Below, piece after piece: positions 3,018-46,569 of a DNA stretch of 64,000 bases. Origin of the DNA: Oligoflexales bacterium (GTDB lineage: Bacteria > Bdellovibrionota_B > Oligoflexia > Oligoflexales > Bog-1112); NCBI GenBank assembly GCA_045105515.1, contig JBGCDR010000181.1:4460-68459 (forward strand), in the 5' to 3' direction. Positions within the stretch are counted from its first letter, which is position 1. Each line of letters begins with the position of its first letter. The translations under genes were made by a program, and so were the position numbers. A model generated the notes under the pieces. It was not told the origin of the DNA. It did not search any database and worked only from the letters and a program-made list of their open reading frames with translations.

Positions 3018-4775
3018 TTATTTGAACCTTACAACCGATACTCCAGCATTTTCTGCCAATGTTTCTATTTCAATAGAATCATCAGTACTTTGCACTTTGT
3101 AAACAAATGGTTTCGTTTGGTAGAGGCTTATTTCAAAGGTTTCAGAATCGAGACTAGTGGCATTATCAGTGGCGTTTTCAAGCTCACCTCCATTGAATTT
3201 ATAACCATATTCCTTGCCGGAATCCCCTTGGACATTGTTTATATTGGCAATCACATCAGCAGTTTGGTAGCGACTTGCTACATCAAGGCTTGTCCCATCA
3301 AGCATCAATGCCCCAATATAATTTCCAACTATTTCTAGCCAAGAAAAGTCAGTATCAGCATACACAGTTCTGATATTTTTGATTCCTTTGTTCGGTGACT
3401 TAATCACATCAGCATAAAACTTTAACCCAGCACTTGCGCTAAGTGCACCATCTGTATAGCTAATCCCACCTTTCTGACTCATCAAGTAGTGAAGCAAAGA
3501 CTGGCCTGCAGCCCGTCCATACGAATCTAGGCTTGAGTCTGAAGAGGTAAGTGCTGCAGACACAAAGAACGGATAGTTACCTGAGTAGCGGTTTTGGAGA
3601 TAAATACTCGCGTAATTTTCGTAATTACCATCGTTCTTATACCCAAATAAGTCCTCTGCAACATGTGCAGCACCCTCATCAATATATAGGTCATCGAGTC
3701 CATTCTTATAGTAATAAGAGATCGCATGAGACACTTCATGAGCTAAGGTTCCCCAATATTGTCTAACATTGGCATCGGTTTCTCCTAATCCCACTCCAGC
3801 TAGAGTCTCCGTCATTAATAAAACTGGCCGGCCTGCGCTAACAGTCAAATCTTGATTAAAGGCACCAATGATTGAAGTAAGTGCGGAAGAGTGACCTAAA
3901 CCTACAAGGTCCTCAAAATTAGCAAAGATAAAATAAGGCTTAAAAGTGATGCCATTTTTAACTGGGAAGGTATCTTCGTAAATCACGTTCTTATAAATGT
4001 CGAGAATATTTTTAATGGTCGACTCTAAGACAGTCTTATCACTTAGCTTGTCAGAAAGACTATCTGTTACCAAGATCACACAAAAATCATCGTTTTCAAT
4101 GACTGCTTCAATGCTATCTTGTTCACTAACTTCATCATCATCTGTATCAACTCCAACGAAGAGTTCCACATCATCATCAGTGGTTGGACAGCCCTCCATA
4201 AGATTGAGGCTTTGGCCCTTCTTAGGTGTAAGACTGGGCTTAAAACTTGCAATAGAACTCTTAAGAAAAGCAGTCATAGAAGGGGTTGGGTTCAAACTCA
4301 GTTGACTTTGATCTTCTTGCTGAAGCTCATCATAGGTATGCGCTAGGGCCCAGAGTCCGTCATCTTGGGATTCTATTGGCTTCCTACGATTGAATCGATT
4401 CATAATCATTCGGTATATTTGACCCATTGATGCAACATCGGAAGGCTGTAGTAACCTTGCAGAAGATTTTTCTTTGGGTGAGAAACCTCTCAGATTTGCT
4501 GAACTCGGCAAAGTTACCGAATATTCACTTTGGCTCGTATCGCCCCCTTGCACAGTATCAATACTACCCAAGTGATAAGGCATTATTAAATACTCTTGAT
4601 CCACCTCCGCATTTGCAAAGCTCACTGTTGCTTTACCATCACTAAAAGGTTCGACCCATCCGGCTAATGCTGTACTATCACTAGCAGCATCTTCTTCAGA
4701 ATCCGTGCATGCGGACATACACAGTAAGGACATAAAAATCAAACCAGTAAGCCTATAAATGAGGAAAATGCGCAT
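3018..4775 (-). CDS. Lipoprotein with HExxH zinc-metallopeptidase motif
   Basis: 585-aa ORF. The lipobox is 'LLCMSAC', followed by an acidic linker. The single HExxH motif sits in 'WGTLAHEVSHAISYY'. GAGG-type RBS upstream of ATG 4775. Confidence 0.6.
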   Translation of the reverse strand: MRIFLIYRLTGLIFMSLLCMSACTDSEEDAASDSTALAGWVEPFSDGKATVSFANAEVDQEYLIMPYHLGSIDTVQGGDTSQSEYSVTLPSSANLRGFSPKEKSSARLLQPSDVASMGQIYRMIMNRFNRRKPIESQDDGLWALAHTYDELQQEDQSQLSLNPTPSMTAFLKSSIASFKPSLTPKKGQSLNLMEGCPTTDDDVELFVGVDTDDDEVSEQDSIEAVIENDDFCVILVTDSLSDKLSDKTVLESTIKNILDIYKNVIYEDTFPVKNGITFKPYFIFANFEDLVGLGHSSALTSIIGAFNQDLTVSAGRPVLLMTETLAGVGLGETDANVRQYWGTLAHEVSHAISYYYKNGLDDLYIDEGAAHVAEDLFGYKNDGNYENYASIYLQNRYSGNYPFFVSAALTSSDSSLDSYGRAAGQSLLHYLMSQKGGISYTDGALSASAGLKFYADVIKSPNKGIKNIRTVYADTDFSWLEIVGNYIGALMLDGTSLDVASRYQTADVIANINNVQGDSGKEYGYKFNGGELENATDNATSLDSETFEISLYQTKPFVYKVQSTDDSIEIETLAENAGVSVVRFK

Positions 4776-5031
4776 ACCCTGACCTCGTTATAATTATTCA
4801 ATAGTAACTATCATAGCCGAGTCTTTTACTGGAGTCATTATCGATAGTTATAGACTGCTAAATGGGTCTTTTCACCTAGGTAAAAACCCGAGTTTATTTG
4901 TAAAGTGACTTGTAGATTTTGCCTACAGAGTGGATATCCAGGAGTAATCGTAAAGATTGAGCACAAGCTATTGTATAATGAAAGAGATCAACATGATTCA
5001 CGGCAATGGACCTGTAGACTGAGGACAGTAA

Positions 5032-5652
5032 ATGAGCAATTCATTAGATGTAACTTTAAGGGCTACATTTGAAAAGATGCATGTGGTCATCCGGAAAAAT
5101 GCTAAATTGAAATTGATAGAGTCCTCCAAATATGAAGATATCGAGATACAAGAATTCACACCTGAAGACATAGAAAAACTTACTTGGGATCATTGGATCA
5201 CCAGTATTCAACAGAAGACCGATCTAGGATCTTTTTTATTCAATGTCCATTTTTTCTCTAAAGCTGCACGAAAAATGGCCGAGCATGCATTTCAATCTTC
5301 CACCAAAATGTCCTCAAATTTCTCGCAAGCACTCATACAGGAATATACCAATATTACTGGTGGAGCCATAAAACAAAGCCTGGTAGCTGCCGGTGCAAAA
5401 ATCTCTACAGACCTTCTGCAGGTTAATTTACCTGAAAGCAAGCCTAGCTATGACAAGGTCCATTTCACAGGATGGGAGGATAATCCGAAACTTGATAAAT
5501 GGAAGTTTAATTTTAAAGACGATGTTATCTACTGCACCTGCAAAATCGAAATAGCAAATGAAAATGAAATTTTACAACTTCATGAATTAAAATCTATTGA
5601 TGAACTTCATGAAGAAGAAGATACCGAAGACGGTGATATCGACTTTTTATAG
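5032..5652 (+). CDS. CheX/CheC-like (chemotaxis phosphatase fold) protein, paralogue 1, acidic GDIDFL C-terminus
   Basis: 206 aa. The E-x2-N helix 'LIQEYTNITGGAIKQSL' matches the CheX consensus (E-l-x-N-i-x-x-G). It aligns with the next ORF. It ends ...EEEDTEDGDIDFL. Confidence 0.55.
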   Translation: MSNSLDVTLRATFEKMHVVIRKNAKLKLIESSKYEDIEIQEFTPEDIEKLTWDHWITSIQQKTDLGSFLFNVHFFSKAARKMAEHAFQSSTKMSSNFSQALIQEYTNITGGAIKQSLVAAGAKISTDLLQVNLPESKPSYDKVHFTGWEDNPKLDKWKFNFKDDVIYCTCKIEIANENEILQLHELKSIDELHEEEDTEDGDIDFL

Positions 5653-6292: not shown

Positions 6293-6658
6293 ATGTCAAA
6301 AATTTTAATCGTCGATGACTCCGAAACCTTGCGCTTAGAGCTAAAAACATTTCTCGAAAGCCTTGGTCATTCTGTCGTTGAAGCTGAAAGTGGTCCAGAT
6401 GGACTTGAAAAAATAAGCCAAAATACGGACGTAAATCTGCTTATATCTGATTTTAATATGCCGGGTATGGATGGTATCTCAATGTGCAAAAAGATCAAAG
6501 ATGAAGCGCAATTCGCGAAGCTTCCGATCTTTATGCTAACCACTGAATCGACCCCCGAACTTAAAAGTGTAGGCAAGGAAGCAGGTGTGATGGCTTGGAT
6601 CGTAAAGCCGTTCAGTACTACAAAGCTTAAAACCGTGCTTGATAAAATTCTAAAATAG
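6293..6658 (+). CDS. Single-domain CheY-like response regulator
   Basis: 121 aa with all receiver landmarks: 'ILIVDDSE', phospho-acceptor 'LLISDFNMPGMDG', 'FMLTTE', 'IVKPF'. Confidence 0.9.
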   Translation: MSKILIVDDSETLRLELKTFLESLGHSVVEAESGPDGLEKISQNTDVNLLISDFNMPGMDGISMCKKIKDEAQFAKLPIFMLTTESTPELKSVGKEAGVMAWIVKPFSTTKLKTVLDKILK

Positions 6659-7661: not shown

Positions 7662-8768
7662 CTAGCCCTGGTTCTCTAAATAAATTTGATCATAAATACT
7701 GAAAAACCTGGTTGCATTATCATTCACCTTAGAATGGTTCTTGCGAAAAGGATAATGAACTGATTGTAAGAACCCAGGCAGAAATTTTAACCAGTACTCT
7801 TCAACCTTTGAGGGTTCCGTTGTTTTAAGTTCGAGGGTGATTGTAGGAAGATTTCTTTCGTTTCCCGCATAATTCCCTAAAGATCCTGGGTAGAATGAGT
7901 AGTCTACTACTCTGTAATTACGAGTTTTCTTTGAAACTGCGTAGACAAACTGCTTTGCTTTTTTTTCAATGCGCGATAAATGTACAGGCTTCTGATCACC
8001 AGGGCCGTCATAATCAAGAAAGCCTAAAGGAGCATGCACTGAGAAAATCTTATCTGGCTTGAACTTGTCGATGAGCTTAACTTGGAAAAGGGTCTCAACC
8101 TCTGTATTGGGAAAGTATCCCGGAAAATATCTCGCAACTCCATTGCGGCGACCCCTCCAAGATTTTCCTGCCTTTTCATACCAATCTAGGGTAAAGAAAT
8201 TTCGATTTACATCCACAATTCGGTTAGTTCTTAGGGGATATTTTTGCAAAAATCCATCAGGATTAACGATAGGTGCGATAATCACTTTAATTCCATGTTT
8301 TATATATACGTCTGGATGAGATTGTAAATACCTCGCAAAACGGAAAGATAGATGAATTGGTGTTAGCTCGTCCGGGTGGACTCCCCCCATGAAGAGAGTA
8401 GTATCCTTCCCGCTACCAAAAGAAGCGTAGATCAGTGGATGACCAGCAACCGTTTTAAGATCGGCACGCCATTGAACACCACCACAGGGGTCACCATACC
8501 AACCATAACGCTTAAAGACCTGCTTAATATTTGTACAAAACTTTTTGATAATCAATGCTTCACGAGGCTGTGCAATAGAATAGTGCGGCATATTGTATGG
8601 GGAAATAAATGGTATTTTAGCCAGCCCCCGCTTCAAGGGTAATGAAGTGGCGATCATCTGCCCTTTGACCGACCATTCCCAAGTGAAGAACAGAACACCG
8701 CCGACAATAAAAAGCTTGGAAGCAATGCCTTTTCTCAGGAAAAACAAGAGAATCCTACTGCACCGCAC
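7662..8768 (-). CDS. M14-family zinc carboxypeptidase (MpaA / murein-peptide amidase-like)
   Basis: 368 aa with an N-terminal membrane or signal segment. The zinc motif is 'MGGVHPDE' (HxxE); 'FSVHAP' and 'PTITLELK' are typical of M14 peptidases. Confidence 0.65.
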   Translation of the reverse strand: MRCSRILLFFLRKGIASKLFIVGGVLFFTWEWSVKGQMIATSLPLKRGLAKIPFISPYNMPHYSIAQPREALIIKKFCTNIKQVFKRYGWYGDPCGGVQWRADLKTVAGHPLIYASFGSGKDTTLFMGGVHPDELTPIHLSFRFARYLQSHPDVYIKHGIKVIIAPIVNPDGFLQKYPLRTNRIVDVNRNFFTLDWYEKAGKSWRGRRNGVARYFPGYFPNTEVETLFQVKLIDKFKPDKIFSVHAPLGFLDYDGPGDQKPVHLSRIEKKAKQFVYAVSKKTRNYRVVDYSFYPGSLGNYAGNERNLPTITLELKTTEPSKVEEYWLKFLPGFLQSVHYPFRKNHSKVNDNATRFFSIYDQIYLENQG

Positions 8769-11669: not shown

Positions 11670-12053
11670 GGCCCAATCAGGCACAAAATTTTGTTAATTT
11701 TTCTATTCTCACCTTAAAATTCAACTTACTAAAATAACTGAGATAATCATAAATAATTGGGTATTAAGATAGGATCTATAGGTGCACCTATTAAAACATA
11801 TTGAAAAAAATCAAAAAATCGGTTAGATTTGCCGCAAAAATGAGGAGTAGGTTTTTTCTCACGAATCCAAATTTGGACTACTGCTAAGAATCCAAGATCT
11901 AATCTCATTTTTTAAGAAGTAGTTGCTAAACAAGATCGAATCGCCTGAGTGAAAATTCCATATCCTTCTTGTTGAACAAATTATCAAATTTATTTTGACT
12001 AATATTGGTCTTCGTGACTATCGAAAACATATTTCAAAAAAGGACTTTAACCT

Positions 12054-13592
12054 ATGAGTTCAAGTAACGCGAGTACTGCAGAGTTCAGTAAATTAAGACA
12101 GATTCTGTGGCCTATCCATGGATTCGAAATGAAAAAATTTCTACCCATGTTCATCATGTTTGGGTGTGTGAGCTTAAACTACAGTTTATTGAGACTAACC
12201 AAAGATACCTTAGTTATTAACGCAGCATCTTCTGGAGCTGCTGTTCTTCCATACTTGAAGCTTTGGTGCACAACACCTGCAGCTATTCTATTTATGATGT
12301 TTTACATCAAACTCGCATCTATGCTAAGCCGTAAAAACTTATTCTATGCAGCAATGCTTCCATTCCTGCTATTTTTTCTAGTATTTCCATATCTATTATT
12401 TCCCAATATCGATGTACTTCACCCAACAAGCTCCGCTGACGCTCTATTATCTTTCTTACCAGCAGGCCTACATGGACTCGTGGAAGTTTACCGTAACTGG
12501 ACCTTCTCACTTTTCTACGTAATGGCAGAATTGTGGGGAAGTATCTGCTTATCTACCCTCTTTTGGGGATGCGCAAACGAAGTTACCAAAGTAAGTGAAG
12601 CTAAGCGATTCTATGGCTTCCTTGGAATTGGGGCTAATATCCCACTTCTTTTTGTTGGTAGCACCGTTAAGGAGATCCTAAGTTTAAACGACTGGGGCGC
12701 TTCAATTAGAGTATTAATGGGAATTTGCTTCGTGGTTGCTGTTTGTGTAATGGCCTTATACTGGTACCTCAATAACGTGGTTATGGAAGATCCTAGATTT
12801 AAAATCACTGAAGTTAAGAAGAAAAAGAAAAAAGTAAAAATGGGCTTTGCACAAAGCTTAAAAGTTCTTAGCACCTCAAAGTACCTTGCTTGTTTAGCGT
12901 TTATGGTACTCGCATATGGTATCTCCGTAAACCTTGTCGAAGTCTCTTGGAAACAATATGTCAAAGAACTATTCAAAGGTGACAATGCTGGCTATCTCCA
13001 GTTCACCAGTAACTGGATGTCTTACACTGGCCTTGCTAGTATCATTTTTATGTTATTTGGCACCAGCAACAGTTTACGAATCCTAGGCTGGGGAAAAACT
13101 GCACTCATCACTCCCGTCGTCTTGTTCGTCGCATCAGCAGCTTTCTTCGGCAACCTGATGTTTGAAGATGTCATGATGGGCATCATGGGCACTCTTAGCA
13201 TGTCTCCTTTGTTTATCGCTTGTTGGATTGGTGGCTTCCATAATACCTTCGGGAAAAGCTCCAAGTACTCTTTCTTTGACCCCACCAAAGAAATTGCATA
13301 CATTCCGCTTGACGAACACACTAAAAAAACTGGTAAAGCAGCTATCGACGGTGTAGGTGGTCGCCTTGGAAAGTCTGGCGGTGCTGCTATCAACATGATT
13401 TTGATCGGATTACTAGGTTCAGTTGAAGCAATCACAAGCTACGTTGGCGTGTTTACGCTGATTACTATTGGCTTTTGGATTGTAGCTGCGAATGCTCTTA
13501 ACAAGCAGTTTATTGCTCTTACTGAAAAACCAGAAACAACAGAGGCGAACGAGTCTGAAAAATCCTCTGACGCAGTTCCTGCTAAGGCTTAA
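12054..13592 (+). CDS. tlc: ATP/ADP translocase / nucleotide transporter (NTT, TLC family)
   Basis: 512 aa and collinear with my memory of Rickettsia/Chlamydia Tlc. Matching segments are 'LRQILWPIHGFEMKKFLPM', 'NYSLLRLTKDTLV', 'MAELWGS...LFWGCANEVTKVSEAKRFYGF', 'SKYSFFDPTKEIAYIPLDEHTKKTGKAAIDGVGGRLGKSGGA'. About 12 hydrophobic segments. Confidence 0.9.
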   Translation: MSSSNASTAEFSKLRQILWPIHGFEMKKFLPMFIMFGCVSLNYSLLRLTKDTLVINAASSGAAVLPYLKLWCTTPAAILFMMFYIKLASMLSRKNLFYAAMLPFLLFFLVFPYLLFPNIDVLHPTSSADALLSFLPAGLHGLVEVYRNWTFSLFYVMAELWGSICLSTLFWGCANEVTKVSEAKRFYGFLGIGANIPLLFVGSTVKEILSLNDWGASIRVLMGICFVVAVCVMALYWYLNNVVMEDPRFKITEVKKKKKKVKMGFAQSLKVLSTSKYLACLAFMVLAYGISVNLVEVSWKQYVKELFKGDNAGYLQFTSNWMSYTGLASIIFMLFGTSNSLRILGWGKTALITPVVLFVASAAFFGNLMFEDVMMGIMGTLSMSPLFIACWIGGFHNTFGKSSKYSFFDPTKEIAYIPLDEHTKKTGKAAIDGVGGRLGKSGGAAINMILIGLLGSVEAITSYVGVFTLITIGFWIVAANALNKQFIALTEKPETTEANESEKSSDAVPAKA

Positions 13593-13624
13593 GAAGAGCC
13601 CTCATTTCTCAAATCAAAAATGTC

Positions 13625-13736: not shown

Positions 13737-14753
13737 TCAATTCTTTTTACGGGAAATTTGAACTCCACGGTCAGAACCTTCACCGACCGAAGAAGACTCA
13801 TAACCAGCATCCACAATCAACTGGTGCTGCAACCTACGTAAATAACTATTTCTAGGCTTAAGGCGAAGTTCACCAAGATTTTCATCTTTCTCAAACTTTT
13901 CAATAGCTGTCTTTGCTTCAGCTACAGCTTCCTCTTCTTTTTCAGCAGATGAGCCCTTAGCTCCCGGTTTTTGATCCTTAAATCCTGGTTTTGAACCACT
14001 TTTTTCAGACCCGTTAAAACTTTTGGAATCTCTCCTGCCTTCATTAGACCTATTGGCAGCTTCGCTTTTCTGACCCTTCATACGTGCTGCTTTTTGCAAC
14101 ATGATGGTAAAACGTCCCACTGGAGGCAAGCTTGCTAGATCATACTCAACACCTTTAGCCCTCTTGTAAATCCATTCAAGGTAGGACAAGACAAAATGAC
14201 CATATTGCTCAAAACTTTGTTTTAAAGCATCATCAATACTTTGCCAAACAGCCTTCTCTTCTTCGCTCTGATCTGCTTTTTGACGATCATGAGGTTTTTT
14301 GCCGGTCTTCGCATTGACAAGAGCTTCAAAATCCTGAGTAAGAAGCACAAATTGGTTCATGGTGTTACCATGAACCTCGTAGTCAAGCGGTTGCTTGCTG
14401 GACAAAAGAGGATACTTCTCTTGATACCATACACAAAGACGCCTGATTAGGTTTACTAAGTCCCCATCGACCACCTCTTGAGAAGAAGGTTTTTCAGCGC
14501 CTTCTTCCAAGAAAGCCAAACTTTCGAAATAAGGCCTAACTAAGGGCCATCTCTTTTCATTGATTTGTTCTTGAAACTGAGCTGGCAAAGACTTAAGGGT
14601 TCGGTCTTCTTCTAAGCAGGTAAAAAGAAAGTAATCAAGTGAAATCTCTTGACCAAGAGATTTCCTATAAATTTCAGTTAGACTAGGCTTTTCTTCTGGA
14701 AGATCAACTACTTCTTCTAAACCAAAACTGTCATCAACAGCACTTCTTGTCAT
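13737..14753 (-). CDS. R3H-domain (single-stranded nucleic-acid binding) protein with unknown N-terminal domain
   Basis: The C-terminal 'LRLKPRNSYLRRLQHQLIVDAGYESSSVGEGSDRGVQI' fits the R3H consensus (P..s..RR.iH.........S.S.GeG..R.v.I). A Ser/Lys/Gly-rich linker precedes it. Confidence 0.6.
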   Translation of the reverse strand: MTRSAVDDSFGLEEVVDLPEEKPSLTEIYRKSLGQEISLDYFLFTCLEEDRTLKSLPAQFQEQINEKRWPLVRPYFESLAFLEEGAEKPSSQEVVDGDLVNLIRRLCVWYQEKYPLLSSKQPLDYEVHGNTMNQFVLLTQDFEALVNAKTGKKPHDRQKADQSEEEKAVWQSIDDALKQSFEQYGHFVLSYLEWIYKRAKGVEYDLASLPPVGRFTIMLQKAARMKGQKSEAANRSNEGRRDSKSFNGSEKSGSKPGFKDQKPGAKGSSAEKEEEAVAEAKTAIEKFEKDENLGELRLKPRNSYLRRLQHQLIVDAGYESSSVGEGSDRGVQISRKKN

Positions 14754-15357: not shown

Positions 15358-15435
15358 TGGCGTCCCCAGGGGGATTTGAACCCCCGTCGCCGCCGTGAAA
15401 GGGCGGTGTCCTGGGCCAGGCTAGACGATAGGGAC
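15358..15435 (-). tRNA. tRNA-Glu (anticodon UUC), CCA encoded
   Basis: The reverse complement is GTCCCTATCGTCTAGCCTGGCCCAGGACACCGCCCTTTCACGGCGGCGACGGGGGTTCAAATCCCCCTGGGGACGCCA. It has a 7-bp acceptor stem (one G-U pair), the anticodon loop CTTTCAC, and a T-loop GGTTCAAATCC. The layout matches E. coli tRNA-Glu. Confidence 0.9.
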
Positions 15436-15447
15436 CTGGTAATCTCG

Positions 15448-15523
15448 TGGTGAGCCCACCTGGATTCGAACCAGGGACCCGCACATTAAAAGTGTGCTGC
15501 TCTGCCAGCTGAGCTATGAGCCC
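15448..15523 (-). tRNA. tRNA-Lys (anticodon UUU), CCA encoded
   Basis: The reverse complement is GGGCTCATAGCTCAGCTGGCAGAGCAGCACACTTTTAATGTGCGGGTCCCTGGTTCGAATCCAGGTGGGCTCACCA (76 nt). The anticodon stem is GCACA/TGTGC, the loop is CTTTTAA, and the T-loop is GGTTCGAATCC. Confidence 0.9.
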
Positions 15524-15799: not shown

Positions 15800-16129
15800 A
15801 TGACCGTCGTAATTAAGAAATCCAAAAAATCTTCAACTGCTGATCTACGCTCTGCCATGACAAAGCTGATATATTTGTTAGAGGGACAAAAAGAGGACGA
15901 GGCTGTTGCAGATCTGCGTATTGCCCTATCGGATATAGAAAAGTACCAAGTAGAATCAGCAGAGTTCCAGGCGGGCTTAAAACTAATCATCGAAGCTTTC
16001 GAGGGTGAACACGAGTTAAATGCTTATACCTACAAGCGCGATAAAGAAGACCAATGGACAGAGGTGGAAGAACTATACTTGGCTAGCACCAGCGTTCTCA
16101 ACCTTGTTAGAAGGCTGTTTAAACAATAG
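15800..16129 (+). CDS. Hypothetical small acidic protein
   Basis: 109-aa ORF with an AAGGG RBS, 12 nt upstream of cls. No motif recognised. Confidence 0.5.
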   Translation: MTVVIKKSKKSSTADLRSAMTKLIYLLEGQKEDEAVADLRIALSDIEKYQVESAEFQAGLKLIIEAFEGEHELNAYTYKRDKEDQWTEVEELYLASTSVLNLVRRLFKQ

Positions 16130-16141
16130 GTCAACACTATA

Positions 16142-17578
16142 GTGCAGGCTGACCCAGCAATCATTGCCATTAGCTTTTTGTTGTACTGCTTAGCCTTTTA
16201 CAACTGTTATCGTGTACTTGGTGCACGTCATTCTCCTGCAGCAAGCATTTCTTGGATTTGGGCAAACCTAACACTACCAATCATTGGCGTTCCCGCCTAT
16301 TGGCTATTTGGCATGGGTAGGCTAAAAAATTATCCAGGCTACCCCGAGCCACAGTTAGATAAACCCTCTTCACCAGAACTGAGCAACAACAACTCTGCTA
16401 TAACTGATTTTTCTAGGATTTTTTCCAAGTTTGGCAATATCTTTGTTCCTTTTTCCAGCGAAGTCTGCCTTTTAAAAGATGGAACCTCAACATTTTCAGC
16501 CATCTTTGAGGCCATTAATACCGGAAAGTCATATATTTTAGTTCAGTATTACATATTGAGGTCTGACCGGTTAGGCTTGGAATTAAAGGAGTTATTAATT
16601 AGCAAGGCAAAAGAGGGACTACAGGTATTCCTCCTTTATGACGACATGGGCTCTTTTTGGCTTTCTAAGCAGTATATTAGAGACCTAAGGTTAGCAGGCG
16701 TACATACCGCGACTTTTTTGCCCGTCTTTAGTTTAAAACGGTTTTATTTAATGAATTACCGCAACCACCGCAAACTCGTAGTGGTAGACGGACGAATAGC
16801 TTTTACAGGCGGGCTTAATGTCGGTGAAGAATATGCTGCCTCACGCTTCGGGAGGCATAGATACTGGCGGGACACCCATATGTCCATTACAGGCAAAAGC
16901 GTTAGACAACTTGAAGCCATCTTCGTTGGTGATTGGGAATTCTCAACTGGGAAAAAGATACTTGATAAGCTTGTAAAACCAAGAACTGGAAAAGCAACTA
17001 ACAAACATCCCACCTCAATTTCTAGCTTTGAACAAAGCATCCTAGTAGTTCCCTCTGGGCCTTACGATCAAACGAATATAGGTATGCTTCTTTTCATGCA
17101 AATCATCCATGGTGCAAAGAAAAAGCTCTGGGTTTCGACCCCATACTTTGTCCCTGATGAAGCACTACAAAAAGGCCTAGAATTAGCTGTACTTAAAGGG
17201 ATAGATGTAAAAATTCTTCTCCCAAAGCATTCTGAACAATTGCTCGTTCATTGGGTTACATTATCTTATGCCGAGCAGATGCAAAGAGCAGGAGTACAAG
17301 TTTATCTTTACGAAAAGGGATTTATCCATCAAAAGGTAATCTTGATTGATGAGGATGTTGCCTTTGTTGGTACAAGCAACTTCGACAACAGAACCTTATA
17401 TTTGAACTGCGAGTTGATGCTAGGTGTTTTTGGCGAAGATTTCAATAAGCAAATCAAGTCGATGCTTAATGATGACTTTAAGAGTGCCAAGGTTTTTACA
17501 CCAAAGAAAGACAGATTGATACGAAAGCTCATTCGCCTACGAGCAAACGGAGCCCGTTTATTGGCTCCACTACTATAA
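16142..17578 (+). CDS. cls: Cardiolipin synthase (PLD superfamily)
   Basis: Two HKD motifs, 'HRKLVVVDGRIAFTGGLNVGEEY' and 'HQKVILIDEDVAFVGTSNFDNRT'. The N-terminal transmembrane pair is typical of Cls. GTG start. Confidence 0.9.
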   Translation: MQADPAIIAISFLLYCLAFYNCYRVLGARHSPAASISWIWANLTLPIIGVPAYWLFGMGRLKNYPGYPEPQLDKPSSPELSNNNSAITDFSRIFSKFGNIFVPFSSEVCLLKDGTSTFSAIFEAINTGKSYILVQYYILRSDRLGLELKELLISKAKEGLQVFLLYDDMGSFWLSKQYIRDLRLAGVHTATFLPVFSLKRFYLMNYRNHRKLVVVDGRIAFTGGLNVGEEYAASRFGRHRYWRDTHMSITGKSVRQLEAIFVGDWEFSTGKKILDKLVKPRTGKATNKHPTSISSFEQSILVVPSGPYDQTNIGMLLFMQIIHGAKKKLWVSTPYFVPDEALQKGLELAVLKGIDVKILLPKHSEQLLVHWVTLSYAEQMQRAGVQVYLYEKGFIHQKVILIDEDVAFVGTSNFDNRTLYLNCELMLGVFGEDFNKQIKSMLNDDFKSAKVFTPKKDRLIRKLIRLRANGARLLAPLL

Positions 17579-17609: not shown

Positions 17610-19400
17610 ATGTTGACTCGACTTGAAGTTCAGGGCCTTGTCTTGATCAAGCATATAGAGGTCTCTTTTTCTTCTGGGTTTCACGTAATCACTGGTGAAA
17701 CAGGAGCGGGAAAGTCTATATTAATAAAAGCCATTCACCTGCTCCTCGGAGGTAAGGCATCAGCTGATACGATTGCAAAAGGCTGCAAGCAAGCAAGTGC
17801 AACGGGAAGTTTTCGTATTCCGAGCTCTCATAAGTGTTTTAAAGTTTTAGAAAGCTTAGGCGTTCCACAAATAAAGGACGGTGACAACCTATTAGTACGC
17901 AGGACTATCACCACAAAAGGACGCTCGTATTGTTGGATCAATGATACTCCTTTGACCATCAGTAGTCTGAGGCTTGTTGGTGAGACTCTGATCGATGTTT
18001 TTGCCCAACACGACAACCAAAAACTTTTAGATGAAAGTAGCCACACTCGCCAACTTGACGCATTTATCAAGACAAAAAATTGCTATGAAAACTATCGATC
18101 TTCCTACAAAAAAACTGTTGAATATTATTCAACTCTGCAAACCCTTGTTATGGACTTAAAGAAAAAGCTCCAGAGTCAAGACTATACCCTATTCAGGCAA
18201 AACCAGATGAAAGAATTAAATCCATGCCAGGAAGAGTACCTTGATTTAATAACTTTTTGTAAAAAAGCAGAAGGCAATTTCCAGAAAAAACAGCACCTAC
18301 TTGCTGTCGTAAAAACTTTAAATGAGGGCCACGATGGAAAATCTCTCAGTCAAGCTCTATGGAGCAGTAAAGACAAGCTCCTAAATACACCTGGCAACTG
18401 TGAAAAAAGCAAAAAAATGGGCACTAATATCGAAGAACTAGCTACTTCCCTGGATGATATTAGTTACGAGTTAGAACAACTCGTTGAAACAATTGGCTTA
18501 GACGAAGATAAATTGGAGCAAGCACAGTCACGACTTGCAGAGTATCAAACATTTATGCGGAAACTTAGTTTTTCGGATATAAAACAACTTTTAGAAGAAC
18601 AACAAAATATTGAAAGAGAAATCTCATATCTCGAAACTGCTACTGAAGGAATTGCGACCGCTCTTAAGCAACTCACCGCTCAATGTAAGAAACTACTACT
18701 GGCTGGTGAGCGGTTAAGTAAGGGCAGAAAAGAAGCTGTTGGTTCGATACGTAAAAAAGTTATTCAAGAATTTGCAGATTTGGGCATGAAAGCAACAAAA
18801 CTCGATGTGGAATTTATCAATCAAAAGGAAGCTCCACTTAGTTTAGATCTGAGCATCCTAGGAGATGAATTTTTGCAAGACTATGCTCTTGAGTGGAAAT
18901 CAATTTGTAAAATTCTATCCAAATTTAAAGAAGAAGGACAAGAAAAGGTTAGATTTCTCCTTGCAACTAATCCTGGAGAAGATCCGAAGCCGCTAAGCAA
19001 AATCGCTTCCGGAGGAGAAGTCTCACGAATTATGCTCGCTTTGAAGCGAGCGCTCATTGCTGAAGCTGAAACATGTATTTTAGTTTTTGATGAAATTGAT
19101 ACCGGAATATCGGGTAGAGTAGCAGATATGGTTGGCAAAAAACTTCGCGAAATGGCAGATGGTGTTCAAATCATCTGTATTTCACATCTTGCTCAAGTTG
19201 CTTCCTATGCTCATCATCACCTACAAGTAAGTAAAACCGTAAGTAAAAATAAAGCAGCGCAGGTAGATCTAAAGACCTTGAATGAACAAGAAAAAGTTGA
19301 GGAAATAGCAAGACTACTATCAGGTGATGAGATCACTCAGCTAAGCCTTGCTAACGCCAAAAGCTTGGTGGAAAGAATTAACGAGTCTACATTGGCGTAA
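17610..19400 (+). CDS. recN: DNA repair protein RecN
   Basis: Walker A 'ITGETGAGKSIL', a long coiled-coil middle region, the signature 'ASGGEVSRIMLALK', and Walker B 'ILVFDEIDTGISG'. I set the start at ATG 17610 (GAGGA 7 nt upstream) rather than TTG 17592. Confidence 0.9.
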   Translation: MLTRLEVQGLVLIKHIEVSFSSGFHVITGETGAGKSILIKAIHLLLGGKASADTIAKGCKQASATGSFRIPSSHKCFKVLESLGVPQIKDGDNLLVRRTITTKGRSYCWINDTPLTISSLRLVGETLIDVFAQHDNQKLLDESSHTRQLDAFIKTKNCYENYRSSYKKTVEYYSTLQTLVMDLKKKLQSQDYTLFRQNQMKELNPCQEEYLDLITFCKKAEGNFQKKQHLLAVVKTLNEGHDGKSLSQALWSSKDKLLNTPGNCEKSKKMGTNIEELATSLDDISYELEQLVETIGLDEDKLEQAQSRLAEYQTFMRKLSFSDIKQLLEEQQNIEREISYLETATEGIATALKQLTAQCKKLLLAGERLSKGRKEAVGSIRKKVIQEFADLGMKATKLDVEFINQKEAPLSLDLSILGDEFLQDYALEWKSICKILSKFKEEGQEKVRFLLATNPGEDPKPLSKIASGGEVSRIMLALKRALIAEAETCILVFDEIDTGISGRVADMVGKKLREMADGVQIICISHLAQVASYAHHHLQVSKTVSKNKAAQVDLKTLNEQEKVEEIARLLSGDEITQLSLANAKSLVERINESTLA

Positions 19401-20910
19401 GAGGTCTCAGTAATTCTTCCGAGTGCATTGCTTTTCGTTCCTGTTTTTCCTTTTGCAAGGAAAACATCCTTTCTGTCTGTTTTGCTTTTTTTTCAGGGAG
19501 ATAAAATGGAACTTCGATATGAGTAGTCACTCCAGGCTTGACGTAAACGGTCTGTTTATATACCTGTCTATCAATATCGGAAATCATTGTATACCGGGTT
19601 AAGGAGTAAGCACCTGCTATGAGAGTCATAGTCGTTTCTCGATCGGAGCTGATATCATGAGAGTGCCCACTAAACTGTTCACCTAATACCTCTAGTCGTA
19701 ATAGGTCAGTTAGATACGCAGGCTTGTAATATGGTTTTGGTGTTATCTTTACTTTGCCTACATATAACTTCAGATTATCTTTCTTAAGTGGTAGTCGATA
19801 ACGAATTCCTTTAGATCCCTCAATACCAACTTCAATGCTATCATTCTTGTAGAGAATCGGCACATCAGAGATGCTCTCAAGAAATGGATATTGCTGACCA
19901 GATAAATACAAACTTACTTCTCTCTTACCTAGGCATTCCCACTCCCAAGGTGAGCACCCTAAATCCACATGAATGCTTTTCATATTTAGCTGTGAGGTTT
20001 GATTTTCAACTAAGTCAACAAAATGATATCGATTTGAGCCATCAATTCTGAGCTTCGCTTTACCAGGTAAAACAGGGTAAAAGATATCAACCTCAAGTGA
20101 ATGATGATCGTTGAGCTCAATGTTAAACGGGTTACCTCTTATTTTTGTAAACAAGTCTAGGTCGATCTTAGGAGAAGTGTTTATTTTCAAACCTGCGGGG
20201 TGAATTAACCGCGATTCTTTTTCTTTTAGATTTACGAGACTGTCGGTCCCATTTACATAAACCACATAGGCTCCTGGAAGCAGAAATTGCCATTTACCAA
20301 AGGTCTGAGCCTGAGTTATGGATAATAAATCATTGCTTGGAGATATAAAGTACAAGGAATATGGGCTATTATTTTGAACCCATTTAGCTACCTGAAAAGC
20401 TGAAAGCTGGTAAGAAATCACCTTTGGTTTAAGATCTTTAGTCTGTGGGAAATCTATCTTCAAAGGCAGCATACCTACCAAGAGATCTCTAGCTCCTGAG
20501 ATCATATGAAAGGAAAACCGGTTAGTGATCTGCTGTTTCAAATGTGAACCATCGTAGCGACTACATTGGATAGAAAACAAATCACCCTCTTCCGGGGGAT
20601 GTGGAGGGATAAACTCGACCTTGTGAGCTACTGTATGAAAACGTTCTCCTGGTAAAATTGTCACCGTCTGGTGGGAGCAATCGGCAAGTACCAAATAGCT
20701 ACCCGGAGATAAGGCTAAGTCCTGATTAAAAAAACCCATATGTTCAGCGACATACTGGAGGCTAGAGTCTCCAGCAATGCTATATAATTCATAAGTTCCT
20801 TCTGATGGAGCAGAAATATGCAATACCCCTTTTTCCTGAGAGCGTTGGCACCCAAGAGGAAAAAAAAGGATATAGGTGAGCAGGAGCTTTAGTATTGAAT
20901 GCAGGTACAC
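19387..20910 (-). CDS. Hypothetical lipoprotein with repeated beta-sandwich-like modules
   Basis: 507 aa. GTG start with a GGGAGA RBS. The lipobox is 'FFPLGC'. The strand signature 'PGSYLVLAD', 'PGAYVVYVNG', 'AGAYSLTRY' recurs and is PEGA / carboxypeptidase-regulatory-like. Confidence 0.55.
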   Translation of the reverse strand: MYLHSILKLLLTYILFFPLGCQRSQEKGVLHISAPSEGTYELYSIAGDSSLQYVAEHMGFFNQDLALSPGSYLVLADCSHQTVTILPGERFHTVAHKVEFIPPHPPEEGDLFSIQCSRYDGSHLKQQITNRFSFHMISGARDLLVGMLPLKIDFPQTKDLKPKVISYQLSAFQVAKWVQNNSPYSLYFISPSNDLLSITQAQTFGKWQFLLPGAYVVYVNGTDSLVNLKEKESRLIHPAGLKINTSPKIDLDLFTKIRGNPFNIELNDHHSLEVDIFYPVLPGKAKLRIDGSNRYHFVDLVENQTSQLNMKSIHVDLGCSPWEWECLGKREVSLYLSGQQYPFLESISDVPILYKNDSIEVGIEGSKGIRYRLPLKKDNLKLYVGKVKITPKPYYKPAYLTDLLRLEVLGEQFSGHSHDISSDRETTMTLIAGAYSLTRYTMISDIDRQVYKQTVYVKPGVTTHIEVPFYLPEKKAKQTERMFSLQKEKQERKAMHSEELLRPLTPM

Positions 20911-20969
20911 GGTTTTGATCTCCCTAATTGCATCTATCTTGCTGGAAGATCAATTATCTCTATTATTGG

Positions 20970-21716
20970 CTAGAAGGCAAATGTCACATTTCCGCTAAGC
21001 TGAGCACTCATTAAAGTTCCGGCTCCCAAATGTAGGCGAGCTCCAACGGAGAGTTTTTCCATGGCAAGCCAGTCTACCCCTCCCCCAAACACCAAAGCAG
21101 CTCCAGTATCTTCTGGCTGCTTTTCATCAGCAAGTCCAATAATATCATTCAAATGAATCATGATAATTCCAAGCTCACCGGAAGCAACAGCCGTAAGTCC
21201 TTTGCCTAGAGGTAATGACCATCCCCCACCAAATAAATAAGACTCAACAACCCCTGTATAAGCCTCGGAGGGTGTCTCCTCATCTAAGTGAGGCGCAACA
21301 TCCATGGGTGCATAACGAAAAGTGCCTGATAATTCGCCTCCCACAAGCTGTTTCCCAAGTTTGTAAGTAAGAGTTACATCACTTGATCCACTTGCTCTCC
21401 AATGGGCGCTGCCACCTTGAATGTAAGCAAAACCATAGCTAGTCCCTATGAACAACTTGTCAGCAATATGCTTACTAAGCTTACTTCTGACCATATCTTC
21501 CGCAGGTTTTTCACTAACAGTAGGGTCGGCATTATCGATCTCGGCCCCTGGCACAGAAGGAGGTGCTAGGTCTTGCTCTGGAGCCGAAGATGGAGGAGGA
21601 GGAGGAGTTGGAGCTAACTCATTCAGACCTTTTCCCCAGCTCTGAGAACTAGCTAAACTAACAGCAAGTACCCAGAGGTAACAAAACCTTTGCGGTGGTC
21701 TTAGGTTAAACCACAT
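20970..21716 (-). CDS. Outer-membrane beta-barrel protein with Pro-rich N-terminal linker
   Basis: Signal peptide, then the linker 'APTPPPPPSSAPEQDLAPPSVPG', then an alternating Gly/aromatic strand pattern. The C-terminal 'NVTFAF' ends in Phe. GGGAGG RBS. Confidence 0.6.
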   Translation of the reverse strand: MWFNLRPPQRFCYLWVLAVSLASSQSWGKGLNELAPTPPPPPSSAPEQDLAPPSVPGAEIDNADPTVSEKPAEDMVRSKLSKHIADKLFIGTSYGFAYIQGGSAHWRASGSSDVTLTYKLGKQLVGGELSGTFRYAPMDVAPHLDEETPSEAYTGVVESYLFGGGWSLPLGKGLTAVASGELGIIMIHLNDIIGLADEKQPEDTGAALVFGGGVDWLAMEKLSVGARLHLGAGTLMSAQLSGNVTFAF

Positions 21717-21732
21717 TAGTTAGAACCTCCCA

Positions 21733-22836
21733 TCAAATTAGTAGTTTTAACTGCATCGTGTAGCGGCGTTCAGCAAGATCATCATGTGTACCTACCACAG
21801 GAGCATGGTCCACTGCGTAAGTAGCAAATCTCAAATTAAGTAAACCAACATCGAATTGAAATCCAGCGGTCAAATAGCCCTCTTTAAGGCCCGTTTGGAC
21901 TTTAATAATTTCCGAATACCCCCACTCAAGTCCCATATTAAGCTTATGAGAATAATGAACAGGTTGATTGATCATATGTGCATCAACAGCAGCAAGGACG
22001 TACATACGATCAGTTTTTATAGGTTTAATACTAAATCCAGTATTTACTGAAGGAAGCCTAGCTTCTGGAGCACCAATGGATGTACTTCCAACATCCATTT
22101 TCTCGTAAACAGTGCCTCCAACATCGGTAATACTAAGCCCAAAAGTAGGTTCCATGGTCTTAATGGGTGTGAACAGCATACCCACATCAGCACCTACACC
22201 CGAACCTCCTTCTACAAACCCCTCTAAATCTTCAGGATCAGTTAAAGCTGAAATGGTTTGGATCGTAAAATTCGCCTTTATACCACCTTTTGCAATAAGC
22301 TTTAGCGATCCCCCTATGCTTAGACGATCCTCAAGAAAATTCATTGCAAAAGATATTGGGGCCACAAGCCTTGGACCAGTTTCAAACTCAATATTTATAT
22401 TGCTATGGGCTACAAGTGAAAATGGTAGCGATAGACCGACCCCAAGACCAAAATGCTTAAATATCAGATGAGGAGTGAGGTACCCTGCCATATGATGAAT
22501 TTTGCCAGTTTGTGCTTGGAAAAGGTCAAGCACATCTGATGTTTGCTCGAAAGAGCCACTAGGAAGCTCTAGCAATTCATTGATAAAGTCGACGGTGCTC
22601 TTACCAATTTCAAGTGCCGGATTCAAAAATTCTCCATCCCACTCTTTTAGTCGAGCTAAGCCGGCTGGATTGTAAAATAAAGCGTTATAGTCATCTGCAA
22701 CAGCAACATAGGCATTCCCCATAGCCAAAGGACGCATGCCAAAGTGAGTCCATCGCAGCTCTTTTGCGACGAGAGCAGTGCTTGTAAAAAGCACGCAAAG
22801 ACAAATGAAATACCGCACAGTCTGCCTGCAATCCAT
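21733..22836 (-). CDS. Outer-membrane barrel protein (FadL/PorV-like N-terminal motif)
   Basis: I set the start at ATG 22836 (CAGGAG RBS 9 nt upstream; signal peptide MDCRQTVRYFICLCVLFTSTALVA). 'LAMGNAYVAVADDYNALFYNPAGLA' is typical of FadL/PorV-type barrels. Confidence 0.55.
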   Translation of the reverse strand: MDCRQTVRYFICLCVLFTSTALVAKELRWTHFGMRPLAMGNAYVAVADDYNALFYNPAGLARLKEWDGEFLNPALEIGKSTVDFINELLELPSGSFEQTSDVLDLFQAQTGKIHHMAGYLTPHLIFKHFGLGVGLSLPFSLVAHSNINIEFETGPRLVAPISFAMNFLEDRLSIGGSLKLIAKGGIKANFTIQTISALTDPEDLEGFVEGGSGVGADVGMLFTPIKTMEPTFGLSITDVGGTVYEKMDVGSTSIGAPEARLPSVNTGFSIKPIKTDRMYVLAAVDAHMINQPVHYSHKLNMGLEWGYSEIIKVQTGLKEGYLTAGFQFDVGLLNLRFATYAVDHAPVVGTHDDLAERRYTMQLKLLI

Positions 22837-23012
22837 TCTTGTAAGCTCCTGGGTTTGAAAGAAGTTCAAGCGAATCAATCTAACCAACTGCAAAAACACA
22901 TAATTACTATTGTTGAATTGACCTTCATTGTATCACACTCAGGATTGGAAAGACTAAGCTAAGGTGTATTGGCGTTACAATTCTTATGAAAAAAAGCTGG
23001 CGGCTCACAGCG

Positions 23013-23721: not shown

Positions 23722-24843
23722 ATGAGAAGAACTATGACTTTTGATGTAAGGGATAAGACTTTGGAGCAGGTCAATTCCATGGTACTAAAAGTCAGAACGA
23801 AGGAAGCCCTCAGTGAAGAGGAAATTAGTAATTTTTTAAACACCTTCGAAAGTTACGAATGTTGGACCCCTTATCTGATGTTGTTAAGCTCGAAGCTTGA
23901 CATATCTGATTCGCCCAATAAAAAAGATTACTATATTTCTTATATCAAGACCCAAAACATTCACTTAAAAAATTCATCTGGCGCCTTAAGCATGTGTAAG
24001 CGCATGATAAAGGATCTCAACCTGAGTTTTATGGAGTTTTGGTCTAAGGTGCTTCCAGAGATTTCCTTAAAACAAGACCATGAAAGTAAAGCTGCTTTTC
24101 TTAAAACTGCGTCAACCCAATTTAAGACGATACCCGAACAGGTGGCATGCCTAGAACACCTTGGCATGATCTATGACAAGAAGATCCACCTTGAGCATGA
24201 ATTACCAGATGTTTACGAAAAGATACTCGAACTGGATCCTAGCAATGTAAAAGCCCTTAAGTATTTTAAAGCGGTATTCACACAGACAGGTTCCTGGGAA
24301 GAAGTGGCTGGAGCATTAGGAAGACTATTGAAAGCTGTAAGCCACAAAAATGAGGAATACCGGGTTGCCCAAGAGTTGGCAGGAGTTTTTTTATACCAGC
24401 TTAACAACCCGCAAAAAGCTATCGACGTGTTAGAAAAGTACTGTGCACAGAGCCCACTGGACACTTCCACCATCCACTACGATGCTTATGCTAGCCTTCA
24501 GGATTGGTCCGGCTGCTTAAAGGTATTAAACCGCTGTATTTTAACCACTGAGGAAGATACGGTCCAAGCAACTCTTTACTACCGAATAGGCCAACTTCAC
24601 GCCCAGCTTGGCAATAATTCCGCAGCAGATTCCAGCCTACAAAAATCCCTAGAGCTTTGGCCACAATTTTTAGAGCCATTAGAGGAACTCATACACATTG
24701 CTGTCGATAAAAAAGATTGGCCTACTTTAAAAAAATACTTAGAAACTCTCGAAAATCTGATACAAGGGGAAGACCAAAAGCGAAAAGTTGCCTCCCTCAT
24801 TGACGTCATAAAAGGGTGCCTAGGGAATGAAAAAATCGAATGA
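23722..24843 (+). CDS. TPR-repeat protein
   Basis: 373 aa with TPR-like helical repeats (for example 'EKILELDPSNVKALKYFKAVFTQTGSWEEVAGAL' and 'YYRIGQLHAQLGNNSAADSSLQKSLELWPQ'). It starts 11 nt after the TetR stop. Confidence 0.6.
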   Translation: MRRTMTFDVRDKTLEQVNSMVLKVRTKEALSEEEISNFLNTFESYECWTPYLMLLSSKLDISDSPNKKDYYISYIKTQNIHLKNSSGALSMCKRMIKDLNLSFMEFWSKVLPEISLKQDHESKAAFLKTASTQFKTIPEQVACLEHLGMIYDKKIHLEHELPDVYEKILELDPSNVKALKYFKAVFTQTGSWEEVAGALGRLLKAVSHKNEEYRVAQELAGVFLYQLNNPQKAIDVLEKYCAQSPLDTSTIHYDAYASLQDWSGCLKVLNRCILTTEEDTVQATLYYRIGQLHAQLGNNSAADSSLQKSLELWPQFLEPLEELIHIAVDKKDWPTLKKYLETLENLIQGEDQKRKVASLIDVIKGCLGNEKIE

Positions 24844-25873
24844 TATATCCGTCTTAATGAAGTCCTACAAGATTCAATTCGAGCCTATCCCTTTTATTGC
24901 CCGTTCCCTAACCGAAAGTTTCCCAAAACGATTTAATACTAGCAAATTACTGATTAGTGGGCTTTATAAAGTAGTTGGCTCCACCCAAGTCAAATGCGAC
25001 CAGTACTTTATCAACGCTCCAGAACAGCGCCAAGCATTTAATGATTTAAGCCGTTTTGACCCAATCACTGAACTGATTCACATAGACTTTCTTCCTTTTA
25101 AACAGTTGCTAAAGCTACTGGAGACATGGAAACAGCCAACCTCACTTTCGATCTATGATCATCAAGATTACAAAATAGACAAACCTCTGTGTGAGCTAGC
25201 ACAAGCACTCCACGGAATTTATCCAAATTTGCAGTCCGATCTTGGGAAACGTTATCTTGACGAATCTTTGAACAGCGACCTTCTCAATAAGCATTTTCCA
25301 TATACTGATGATGCCTTAGTATTGCAAGAAAGACCGGGAAAAATGGTCATTTGGAACCCTCGAATGGCTTGCGAACAAGGATTCTCTCAAAAGTACAAAA
25401 ATGTATCGAGCGAACATGTACAAAAAAAATCGCTAATGAATGTTGGAAGAACTCAAGGTTTGGTGAGCATGATTGTTTGGGAAGGGCACGACCATCCGCA
25501 CACCGTACATAAGCAACTAAGCGCTATGTCTTATAGACTTGAAGACCATGGATTTGACCTTACAGCACCCGAAAAAATTACTGACAAGATTTGGGATTTT
25601 GCCAAATCGATCTTCGCAAACCAAGGTGATAGTAAAGTACATATCTACTTATCTTGTCCTTTTCAGACCATCACCAATGCTTTAATGCAGTCCTTTGGAA
25701 AAGTTTTATCTGGTAAACCACTTTCTTTCAAGGTTCATGATCTTATAACTGGATACAGCCCTAAGCTCTCATTTATGAGTTTTCTATCTTCAATTGAAGA
25801 AGCTGCTATTTTCGTAGATTTAAGTGATTTTCCAGAAGTCGTTTGCGTTGTTGGCCAAAATGAAGGGGGCTGA
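24827..25873 (+). CDS. Hypothetical protein
   Basis: 348-aa ORF whose start overlaps the TPR gene end by 17 nt. No motif recognised. Confidence 0.55.
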   Translation: MKKSNDISVLMKSYKIQFEPIPFIARSLTESFPKRFNTSKLLISGLYKVVGSTQVKCDQYFINAPEQRQAFNDLSRFDPITELIHIDFLPFKQLLKLLETWKQPTSLSIYDHQDYKIDKPLCELAQALHGIYPNLQSDLGKRYLDESLNSDLLNKHFPYTDDALVLQERPGKMVIWNPRMACEQGFSQKYKNVSSEHVQKKSLMNVGRTQGLVSMIVWEGHDHPHTVHKQLSAMSYRLEDHGFDLTAPEKITDKIWDFAKSIFANQGDSKVHIYLSCPFQTITNALMQSFGKVLSGKPLSFKVHDLITGYSPKLSFMSFLSSIEEAAIFVDLSDFPEVVCVVGQNEGG

Positions 25874-25875
25874 TT

Positions 25876-38201: not shown

Positions 38202-38224
38202 TTAAAATCACCTCTTATCTGTGA

Positions 38225-44107: not shown

Positions 44108-44175
44108 TGTGCACTGCAAAGAAACTATGATAATAATAGGCTATCATAATTAGTCATCTTCGTAGGTCTTTGTAT

Positions 44176-46561: not shown

Positions 46562-46569
46562 GTTTCTCT

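Follow-up and report, generated by a model that had tools for sequence, protein, structure and literature searches.

The presence of a nucleotide transporter of the NTT/Tlc family is often taken to signal an obligate intracellular existence accompanied by genome decay. Two members have solved structures: NTT1 (or Npt1) of the obligate intracellular chlamydia C. pneumoniae (9j3n, 9j3o), and AtNTT1 (9j3j, 9j3l, 9j3m), an organelle carrier from the eukaryote Arabidopsis that has a transit peptide and supplies the plastid. Nearly all characterised NTTs fall in one subfamily, referred to here as canonical (PMC5381601), and the family as a whole is widespread in free-living as well as host-associated bacteria, the set analysed having included 33 deltaproteobacterial sequences and the predator Halobacteriovorax marinus (Major, Embley & Williams 2017, PMC5381601). 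ATP/ADP translocases (K03301) have also been described as 'common in BALO genomes', that is, in Bdellovibrio and like organisms (Seymour et al. 2023, PMC10066038). The subject of the present analysis is an NTT gene at positions 12054 to 13592 (plus strand) of a 64-kb stretch of contig JBGCDR010000181.1 from an Oligoflexales bacterium; the window, in what follows, is this whole stretch. The interpretation we favour, with moderate confidence, is that the gene encodes a functional inner-membrane carrier of the canonical type, most likely an ATP/ADP exchanger, through which a large-genome member of the Oligoflexales draws ATP or nucleotides out of its host or prey. The large, non-reduced context of the gene is genuine but has precedent, and the scenario is not new in kind; within marine Oligoflexales, the gene belongs to a clade of canonical-type NTTs that is small and isolated and has been passed on vertically.

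The open reading frame (ORF) starts with ATG and encodes a single-domain protein of 512 amino acids, the assignment of which as a full-length NTT/Tlc transporter (TC 2.A.12) is secure on its sequence. The Pfam profile PF03219 (TLC ATP/ADP transporter) matches with an E-value of 1.4e-167 and 558.9 bits (cutoff 21) over profile positions 4-491 of 491, and the NCBIfam model TIGR00769 (NTP/NDP exchange transporter) scores 518.8 bits compared with a curated cutoff of 387.2. The initial annotation, made from the DNA letters alone, had recognised an NTT/Tlc homologue collinear with Rickettsia and Chlamydia carriers; these profiles and the structural matches described below bear out the family and show collinearity with chlamydial and plastid carriers, and the sequence blocks on which it had relied are all in place (MAELWG at residues 157-162, EAKRFY at 182-187, YIPLD at 416-420 and GGRLGKSGGA at 434-443). 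PF03219, at residues 7-486 of 512, is the only domain detected in the protein, with neither a HEAT-repeat nor a cNBD domain, and the gene is not adjoined by a cNBD gene, its 3' neighbour being a convergent gene for an R3H-domain protein (13737-14753, minus strand). The protein therefore lies outside the NTT-HEAT(-cNBD) subfamily of cyanobacteria and other free-living bacteria, fusions which resemble it in placing an NTT domain outside obligate endosymbionts but which carry HEAT or cNBD extensions that it lacks (Major et al. 2017). Since the 3' neighbour is convergent, the earlier description of the gene as monocistronic is plausible. An identical protein (100%) is present at NCBI as MFK7825490.1 from an Oligoflexales bacterium, labelled "Npt1/Npt2 family nucleotide transporter", and the gene had thus already been annotated automatically.

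At the level of structure the two solved NTTs are both matched in the PDB, 9j3n of C. pneumoniae with an E-value of 6.6e-144 and 9j3j of AtNTT1 with 3.5e-119. An AlphaFold2 model built on an alignment of 46 sequences (pLDDT 83.7, pTM 0.83) has the twelve-helix fold of the major facilitator superfamily (MFS), and hydropathy shows 11 clear segments and one amphipathic one. Compared by Foldseek, the model superimposes on ATP-bound 9j3n with TM-scores of 0.87/0.91, a root-mean-square deviation of 2.2 Å and 46% identity, and on the ATP-bound form of AtNTT1 (9j3l) with TM-scores of 0.89/0.94, whereas other MFS carriers reach only about 0.5. The likeness to the C. pneumoniae protein extends to the single PF03219 domain, length, end-to-end identity (46-47%), predicted fold, conserved charged helix residues and a Lys-rich central loop, although that carrier belongs to an obligate intracellular chlamydia and the Oligoflexales protein belongs to a large-genome host, forms a separate clade with 100% support and carries S89, T426, H396 and C173. 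AtNTT1 is 42-44% identical and is an organelle carrier, whereas the Oligoflexales protein is predicted to reside in a bacterial inner membrane.

Residues K155, E245, E385 and K527 of AtNTT1 are reportedly essential for transport. Their equivalents, which we take from motif mapping to be K69, E159, E296 and K440, are all conserved in the Oligoflexales protein. K69 in helix 2 (codon 12258-12260) is Lys in all 76 close homologues and in 134 members of a diverse family set of 144; E159 in the MAELWG motif of helix 4 (12528-12530) is Glu in 76/76 and 140/144; E296 in VEVSWK of helix 7 (12939-12941) is Glu in 76/76 and 123/144, with Asp in 18 of the diverse set; and K440 in LGKSGGA of helix 11 (13371-13373) is Lys in 76/76 and 138/144, all four codons being on the plus strand. 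Further conserved charged positions are K50, R185, K300, K404, D409, K412, K428, D432 and R437, and 51 of 55 near-invariant columns are kept, the exceptions being N89S, F173C, Q396H and K426T. Between the two six-helix halves lies a Lys-rich, predicted cytoplasmic loop (VKKKKKKVKM, residues 254-263, 12813-12842, plus strand) with low pLDDT, consistent with a flexible loop. This run had been singled out in the initial annotation, which placed it one or two nucleotides away; it is present, but Lys-rich central loops are common to most homologues (KGKKGAKPKM in Npt1, KNKKEKPKM in AtNTT1), so the feature is no peculiarity of the Oligoflexales protein.

The best match among GTDB species representatives, at 95% protein identity, comes from the metagenome-assembled genome (MAG) DT-Oligoflexales-1, which is classified as Bdellovibrionota; Oligoflexia; Oligoflexales; f__Bog-1112; g__JABSRF01 (Leu et al. 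2022 supplement). This MAG was recovered from sinking particles at Station ALOHA and comprises 4.55 Mb and 4376 genes at 42.5% GC, with 90.8% completeness and 0.84% contamination (Leu et al. 2022). Within the window, the aspartyl-tRNA synthetase (AspRS, 58355-60154) is identical to an NCBI protein named "Oligoflexales bacterium", and at 59-64% identity the relatives that bear a name come from Oligoflexus and Oligoflexales. The source of the DNA is accordingly a marine member of the Oligoflexales (Bdellovibrionota), in or near the family Bog-1112, with a genome of about 4.5-5 Mb.

Gene order around the NTT gene is retained well beyond this closest group. Contigs and proteins of relatives are numbered L0xx here, L001 being the sister protein from GTDB, and clusters at 90% identity are numbered P00xx. 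Contig L081, with a 95% identical NTT, shares its gene order with the window for 21 kb or more; L085 (NTT 73% identical) keeps scpA-scpB-rluB-NTT, and L088 (70%), a contig that ends just upstream of scpB, keeps scpB-rluB-NTT. In L090, with an NTT of 59% identity, the whole block M14 peptidase-scpA-scpB-rluB-NTT-x-rhodanese-...-PLD-recN is preserved. Divergence of the flanks keeps step with that of the transporter (L090: NTT 59%, most neighbours 59-65%; L081: NTT 95%, neighbours 78-92%), the GC content of the gene and its GC content at third codon positions fall within the range of the other genes of the window, and comparison with the two closest genomes gives a dN/dS of 0.02-0.03 at dS values above 1. 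This synteny, flank co-divergence, typical composition and low dN/dS mark the NTT gene as an old one in its lineage, passed on vertically and held by strong purifying selection, and not as a pseudogene. In a bacterium whose genome measures some 4.5-5 Mb, a canonical chlamydia-type NTT has in this way been kept at one locus across contigs with flanking proteins that are down to about 60% identity.

The alternative that a chlamydial contig was misbinned into an Oligoflexales MAG is brought to mind by the nearest named relatives of the protein, which after the Oligoflexales sister are almost all Chlamydiota at 45-49% identity. However, the gene lies within 64 kb of contiguous sequence whose AspRS groups with Oligoflexus and Oligoflexales, synteny at the locus extends over contigs of several separate samples and over two separately deposited MAGs, with flanks that co-diverge, the composition of the gene is typical for the window, and the contamination of the sister MAG is below 1% as given above. 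Misbinning is effectively refuted, its probability being negligible, and the same evidence of synteny, co-divergence, composition and AspRS affiliation rules out a recent horizontal transfer. As a separate observation on this locus in the relatives, L090 carries an IS605-type OrfB/TnpB (Cas12f-like) gene and a resolvase (3298-5150 of that contig) just upstream of the M14-scpA-scpB-rluB-NTT block.

The bacterium that carries the gene is not a reduced endosymbiont, since the syntenic sister MAG already reaches 4.55 Mb at 90.8% completeness, in agreement with what the initial annotation had supposed from neighbouring genes. The gene context was described by scanning the larger ORFs of the window with Pfam and NCBIfam models, which identified an orotidine 5'-monophosphate decarboxylase (pyrF, 27684-28604), LpxC (28781-29947), an MqnP/UbiA-like polyprenyltransferase (42312-43220) that points to quinone synthesis, a tetrahaem cytochrome fusion (44170-45576, plus strand) and FliG (48384-49421), a set of genes unlike that of a reduced obligate intracellular genome. 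As pyrF is kept, de novo pyrimidine synthesis probably is as well. FliG contains all three Pfam FliG domains and passes TIGR00207 narrowly (231.3 bits, cutoff 226.7). FliG, regulators, a multihaem cytochrome, LpxC and pyrF had all been listed in the initial annotation and are all present; the description of the regulators as chemotaxis-type over-reads two single-domain response-regulator receivers (6293-6658 and 32467-32919), which have nothing chemotaxis-specific about them.

By homology with the solved carriers, the protein would be a 12-helix MFS-type carrier whose central cavity, with its lining of conserved Lys, Arg and Glu side chains, accommodates a nucleoside triphosphate, and which alternates between outward-open and inward-open states. 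The most likely reaction would be import of ATP in exchange for ADP (plus phosphate), as in C. pneumoniae NTT1 and AtNTT1, and the carrier would most likely serve, while the bacterium grows attached or intracellularly, to draw on the ATP or nucleotides of its host or prey. The transporter would then represent energy parasitism added to an otherwise self-sufficient metabolism, with its own biosynthesis, quinone synthesis and flagellar motor protein.

Such uptake by a motile bacterium with a full metabolism, much as the initial annotation had suggested for a free-swimming one, is credible because of published cases among the Oligoflexales and BALO and because of the gene neighbourhood in one relative. 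In a 2026 study (PMC12865303), FD111-like Oligoflexales were described as single-flagellum rods that attach to Nannochloropsis, replicate inside the alga and leave ghost cells behind, and in Aiptasia the abundance of Oligoflexales tracks the density of algal symbionts. BALO carriers are comparable to the Oligoflexales protein in coming from the same phylum-level predatory group, from non-reduced genomes and from the same protein family. However, by its published description (PMC5381601) the NTT of Halobacteriovorax belongs with Simkania NTT4 and diatom NTT5-6 and lies outside the canonical subfamily, whereas the Oligoflexales protein is of the canonical type. In the relative L084 (P0014, NTT 57% identical), ankyrin-repeat, SET-domain and Myb-DNA-binding proteins (7898-8668, 12523-12948 and 15841-17262 of that contig) are encoded within 6 kb of the NTT gene; proteins of these kinds are eukaryote-like and typical of host-manipulating bacteria or of eukaryote-directed effectors. 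A literature search returned no paper that ties Oligoflexales or Oligoflexia specifically to NTTs or energy parasitism.

A free-living scavenger, taking up ATP or nucleotides from cells that lyse on marine particles and having no dedicated interaction with a host or prey, would also account for a transporter in a genome as large and non-reduced as this one. In its favour, the sister MAG comes from particles, NTTs have a wide distribution among free-living bacteria (PMC5381601) and the scans of the window identified no secretion system or effector. Yet an exchanger that releases ADP would gain little from dilute external ATP, the phylum is one of predators and some Oligoflexales replicate inside algae (PMC12865303), the NTT of L084 adjoins the eukaryote-like proteins just described, and intracellular bacteria otherwise dominate the canonical subfamily. 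We regard scavenging as improbable.

Within the family, the protein, 21 other clusters at 90% identity (P0001-P0022 including its own) and L001 form a clade with 100% bootstrap support in a neighbour-joining tree, and an inner subclade, again at 100%, holds the NTT genes linked to scpB and rluB. The clade is small and isolated. A profile built from its outer members retrieved the same 22 clusters among 5.8 billion proteins and then chlamydial sequences; on clustering at 50% identity the whole clade collapses to one representative, with the next representative only 45% identical; and the nearest relatives outside it are almost all Chlamydiota (45-50%), followed by Holosporales (about 40%). Oligoflexus tunisiensis is not among the matches of the clade, so the transporter marks a sublineage and not the whole order. 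Profile scores of the clade are highest against the Npt1-type clade (620 bits, compared with 540 for a second chlamydial paralogue clade and 506 for Holosporales), and the scores of AtNTT1, which is known to exchange ATP and ADP, follow this pattern too.

Three minor observations concern members of this clade. On the 779-kb contig L082 of P0022, a gene for a further MFS protein (18906-20165, minus strand), which matches TLC weakly, lies 7.5 kb downstream of the NTT gene, and in L089 an MFS_1 gene directly follows the NTT gene. L089 (P0021) and an AspRS relative (P0218, 64%) both bear the NCBI label 'Zetaproteobacteria bacterium', their origin from a common MAG not being established; the label is probably wrong, because that AspRS groups with Oligoflexales and its name in the nr database begins 'Pseudobde...'.

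Several points weigh against an ATP/ADP exchanger used on a host or prey. The transport activity of the clade's members is itself a prediction from their sequences, and the canonical subfamily includes close paralogues with different substrates and modes, some performing ATP/ADP exchange and others NTP/H+ symport (PMC5381601). In the tree the clade does not fall within the Npt1 clade but is sister to the second chlamydial paralogue clade at 70%, with backbone support of 24-38%. The substitutions of the clade itself (N89S/T, K426T, Q396H and F173C) affect positions that are invariant among 52 close homologues. Motility rests on a single isolated fliG, which has no flanking flagellar genes, and the 64-kb window contains no direct sign of host or prey contact. 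Apart from these points, the combination of an NTT with a non-reduced genome, to which the initial annotation had drawn attention, is real, but its unusualness is weakened by the surveys of Major et al. (2017) and Seymour et al. (2023) and by the existing NCBI annotation.

Some of these points would also fit a protein of the same family and fold that acts as a broad nucleotide importer, by NTP/H+ symport or by heterologous NTP exchange as in C. trachomatis Npt2 and Protochlamydia NTT2/3/5, and that supplies building blocks for fast replication and not energy. The position of the clade apart from Npt1 and weakly sister to the other chlamydial paralogues, its own changes at N89, K426, Q396 and F173, all positions that differ among family members, and the diversity of specificities and modes in the canonical subfamily (PMC5381601) are in its favour. 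It is opposed by the retention of pyrF, and with it probably of de novo pyrimidine synthesis, by the top profile similarity to the Npt1-type clade in an AtNTT1-like pattern, and by the best structural matches of the model, which are ATP-bound ATP/ADP translocators. We consider such an importer unlikely, though it is the main alternative. Phylogeny fixes no functional class here, because the backbone is weak (24-70% including the node shared with the second chlamydial clade) and the tree left out the characterised Npt2, PamNTT2-5 and Tlc1-5; an assignment of class by phylogeny was rejected for these reasons. The clade-specific substitutions were likewise rejected as a sign of new function. Positions 89, 173, 396 and 426 vary among the 144 diverse representatives, seven of which have H396, so the changes hint at most faintly at altered specificity; S/T89, T426 and H396 might nonetheless give an altered substrate range.

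Another adenylate-containing substrate, for example NAD+ as in Protochlamydia NTT4, or operation in reverse as an exporter of ATP to a partner cell, is very unlikely. NAD+-specific members of the family do exist and some endosymbionts are thought to supply their host with ATP (PMC5381601; PMC11549363). However, carriers of the PamNTT4 type lie outside the canonical subfamily (PMC5381601), whereas the Oligoflexales protein, 46-47% identical to Npt1, is inside the canonical group, and nothing suggests a mutualistic lifestyle with ATP export.

If the import of ATP from a host or prey cell, as favoured here, is correct, energy parasitism can be a stable addition to a self-sufficient metabolism, and the transporter would be a marker by which Oligoflexales that invade eukaryotes could be found, both in marine particles and in cultures of algae, in which bacteria of this kind bring about pond crashes. 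As a more tentative proposal, and one we think doubtful, the clade could represent an unrecognised group of large-genome, flagellated marine Oligoflexales (Bog-1112 and relatives) living as FD111-like energy parasites of eukaryotes, such as microalgae or protists on sinking particles, a parasitism that would have lasted for long periods with no genome reduction.

The region upstream of the NTT gene, which would contain its promoter and leader, measures 384 nt (11670-12053, plus strand), as initially annotated, because the gene for an RluB-type pseudouridine synthase ends at 11669. Its 3' 264 nt (11790-12053) are 88% identical in the sister genome, with which the 120 nt on the 5' side give no alignment. 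The rest of the intergenic DNA in the syntenic block reaches the same level as the leader, at 86-88%, and relatives with NTT proteins of 70-80% identity show no conservation of it. A search of the region against Rfam gave no match at E<=1, and the predicted fold (z=-1.0) is not unusual. The leader is thus not exceptional, given that neighbouring intergenic DNA is equally conserved, distant relatives share nothing and there is neither an Rfam match nor an unusual structure, and a riboswitch or structured leader was rejected on the same grounds.

A consensus scan gave a candidate for a sigma-70-like promoter, TTGAAA-17-TAGATT (11801-11829, plus strand, 9 of 12 matches), both hexamers of which are unchanged in the three closest genomes, although promoter-like sites are no more numerous in the region than expected from shuffled sequence. 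A Shine-Dalgarno-like AAGGA (12040-12044, plus strand) stands 9 nt before the ATG and is conserved in L081 and L001. Also conserved in these two is a perfect 12-nt palindrome, TCCAAATTTGGA (11866-11877), which lies 3' of the predicted promoter and for these reasons might, speculatively, be an operator. Two further perfect palindromes are found in the upstream region, ATAGGTGCACCTAT at 11778-11791 and ACAAAATTTTGT at 11683-11694. The repeat-family copies that the initial annotation had reported there were not recovered: neither a repeat search (seed 12, minimum 24 nt) nor an exact k-mer scan (k=11-16) found any in 11670-12053, there being no match of at least 14 nt elsewhere in the window and only chance 12-13-mers besides the three local palindromes. 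A small ORF on the minus strand (11747-11908, 53 amino acids), called as a gene in one assembly, was set aside; it is uncalled in L081 and lies partly in the non-conserved segment. At the other end of the gene, a weak terminator-like hairpin (13586-13600, plus strand; 5 pairs and a poor T-run, from a consensus scan) overlaps the NTT stop codon.

Intergenic DNA across window positions 2500-23700 is 86-88% identical to L081 over nearly its full length, despite third codon positions of the NTT gene that are only about 62% identical between the two (dS above 1). Some of the 'intergenic' stretches may hide small genes, as L081 has a gene call of 109 amino acids that matches about 15800-16130.

Of the remaining features of the window, a tandem pair of tRNA genes, tRNA-Glu(TTC) and tRNA-Lys(TTT), lies about 1.8 kb 3' of the NTT gene (15358-15523, minus strand). 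Even lenient thresholds leave about one third of the larger ORFs unmatched in Pfam and NCBIfam (for example 3018-4775, 19387-22899, 24827-27723, 36547-38848 and 45632-48301), and these, together with TPR-repeat proteins at 23722-24843, 29958-30941 and 39489-40481, represent lineage-specific gene content. A 161-residue ORF on the minus strand (56648-57133) has a sub-threshold match to the T4 gp19 tail tube (26.9 bits, cutoff 28.2) and overlaps the start of a protein of 496 residues that has no family match (pair at 55201-57133, minus strand). A contractile-injection or phage-tail module was rejected here, the gp19 match being sub-threshold and the PHROG and NCBIfam searches giving no support; the pair could nevertheless be what is left of a contractile injection system, or its tube and sheath in divergent form, and would then bear on contact with a host or prey. 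The tetrahaem cytochrome fusion at 44170-45576 combines a cytochrome c554-like C-terminal part, with four CXXCH motifs, and a UshA-like N-terminal part of the 5'-nucleotidase/metallophosphoesterase type (NF041198, 148 bits, below the cutoff), and the presence of such a nucleotidase-like domain in an organism that presumably imports nucleotides may be more than coincidence.

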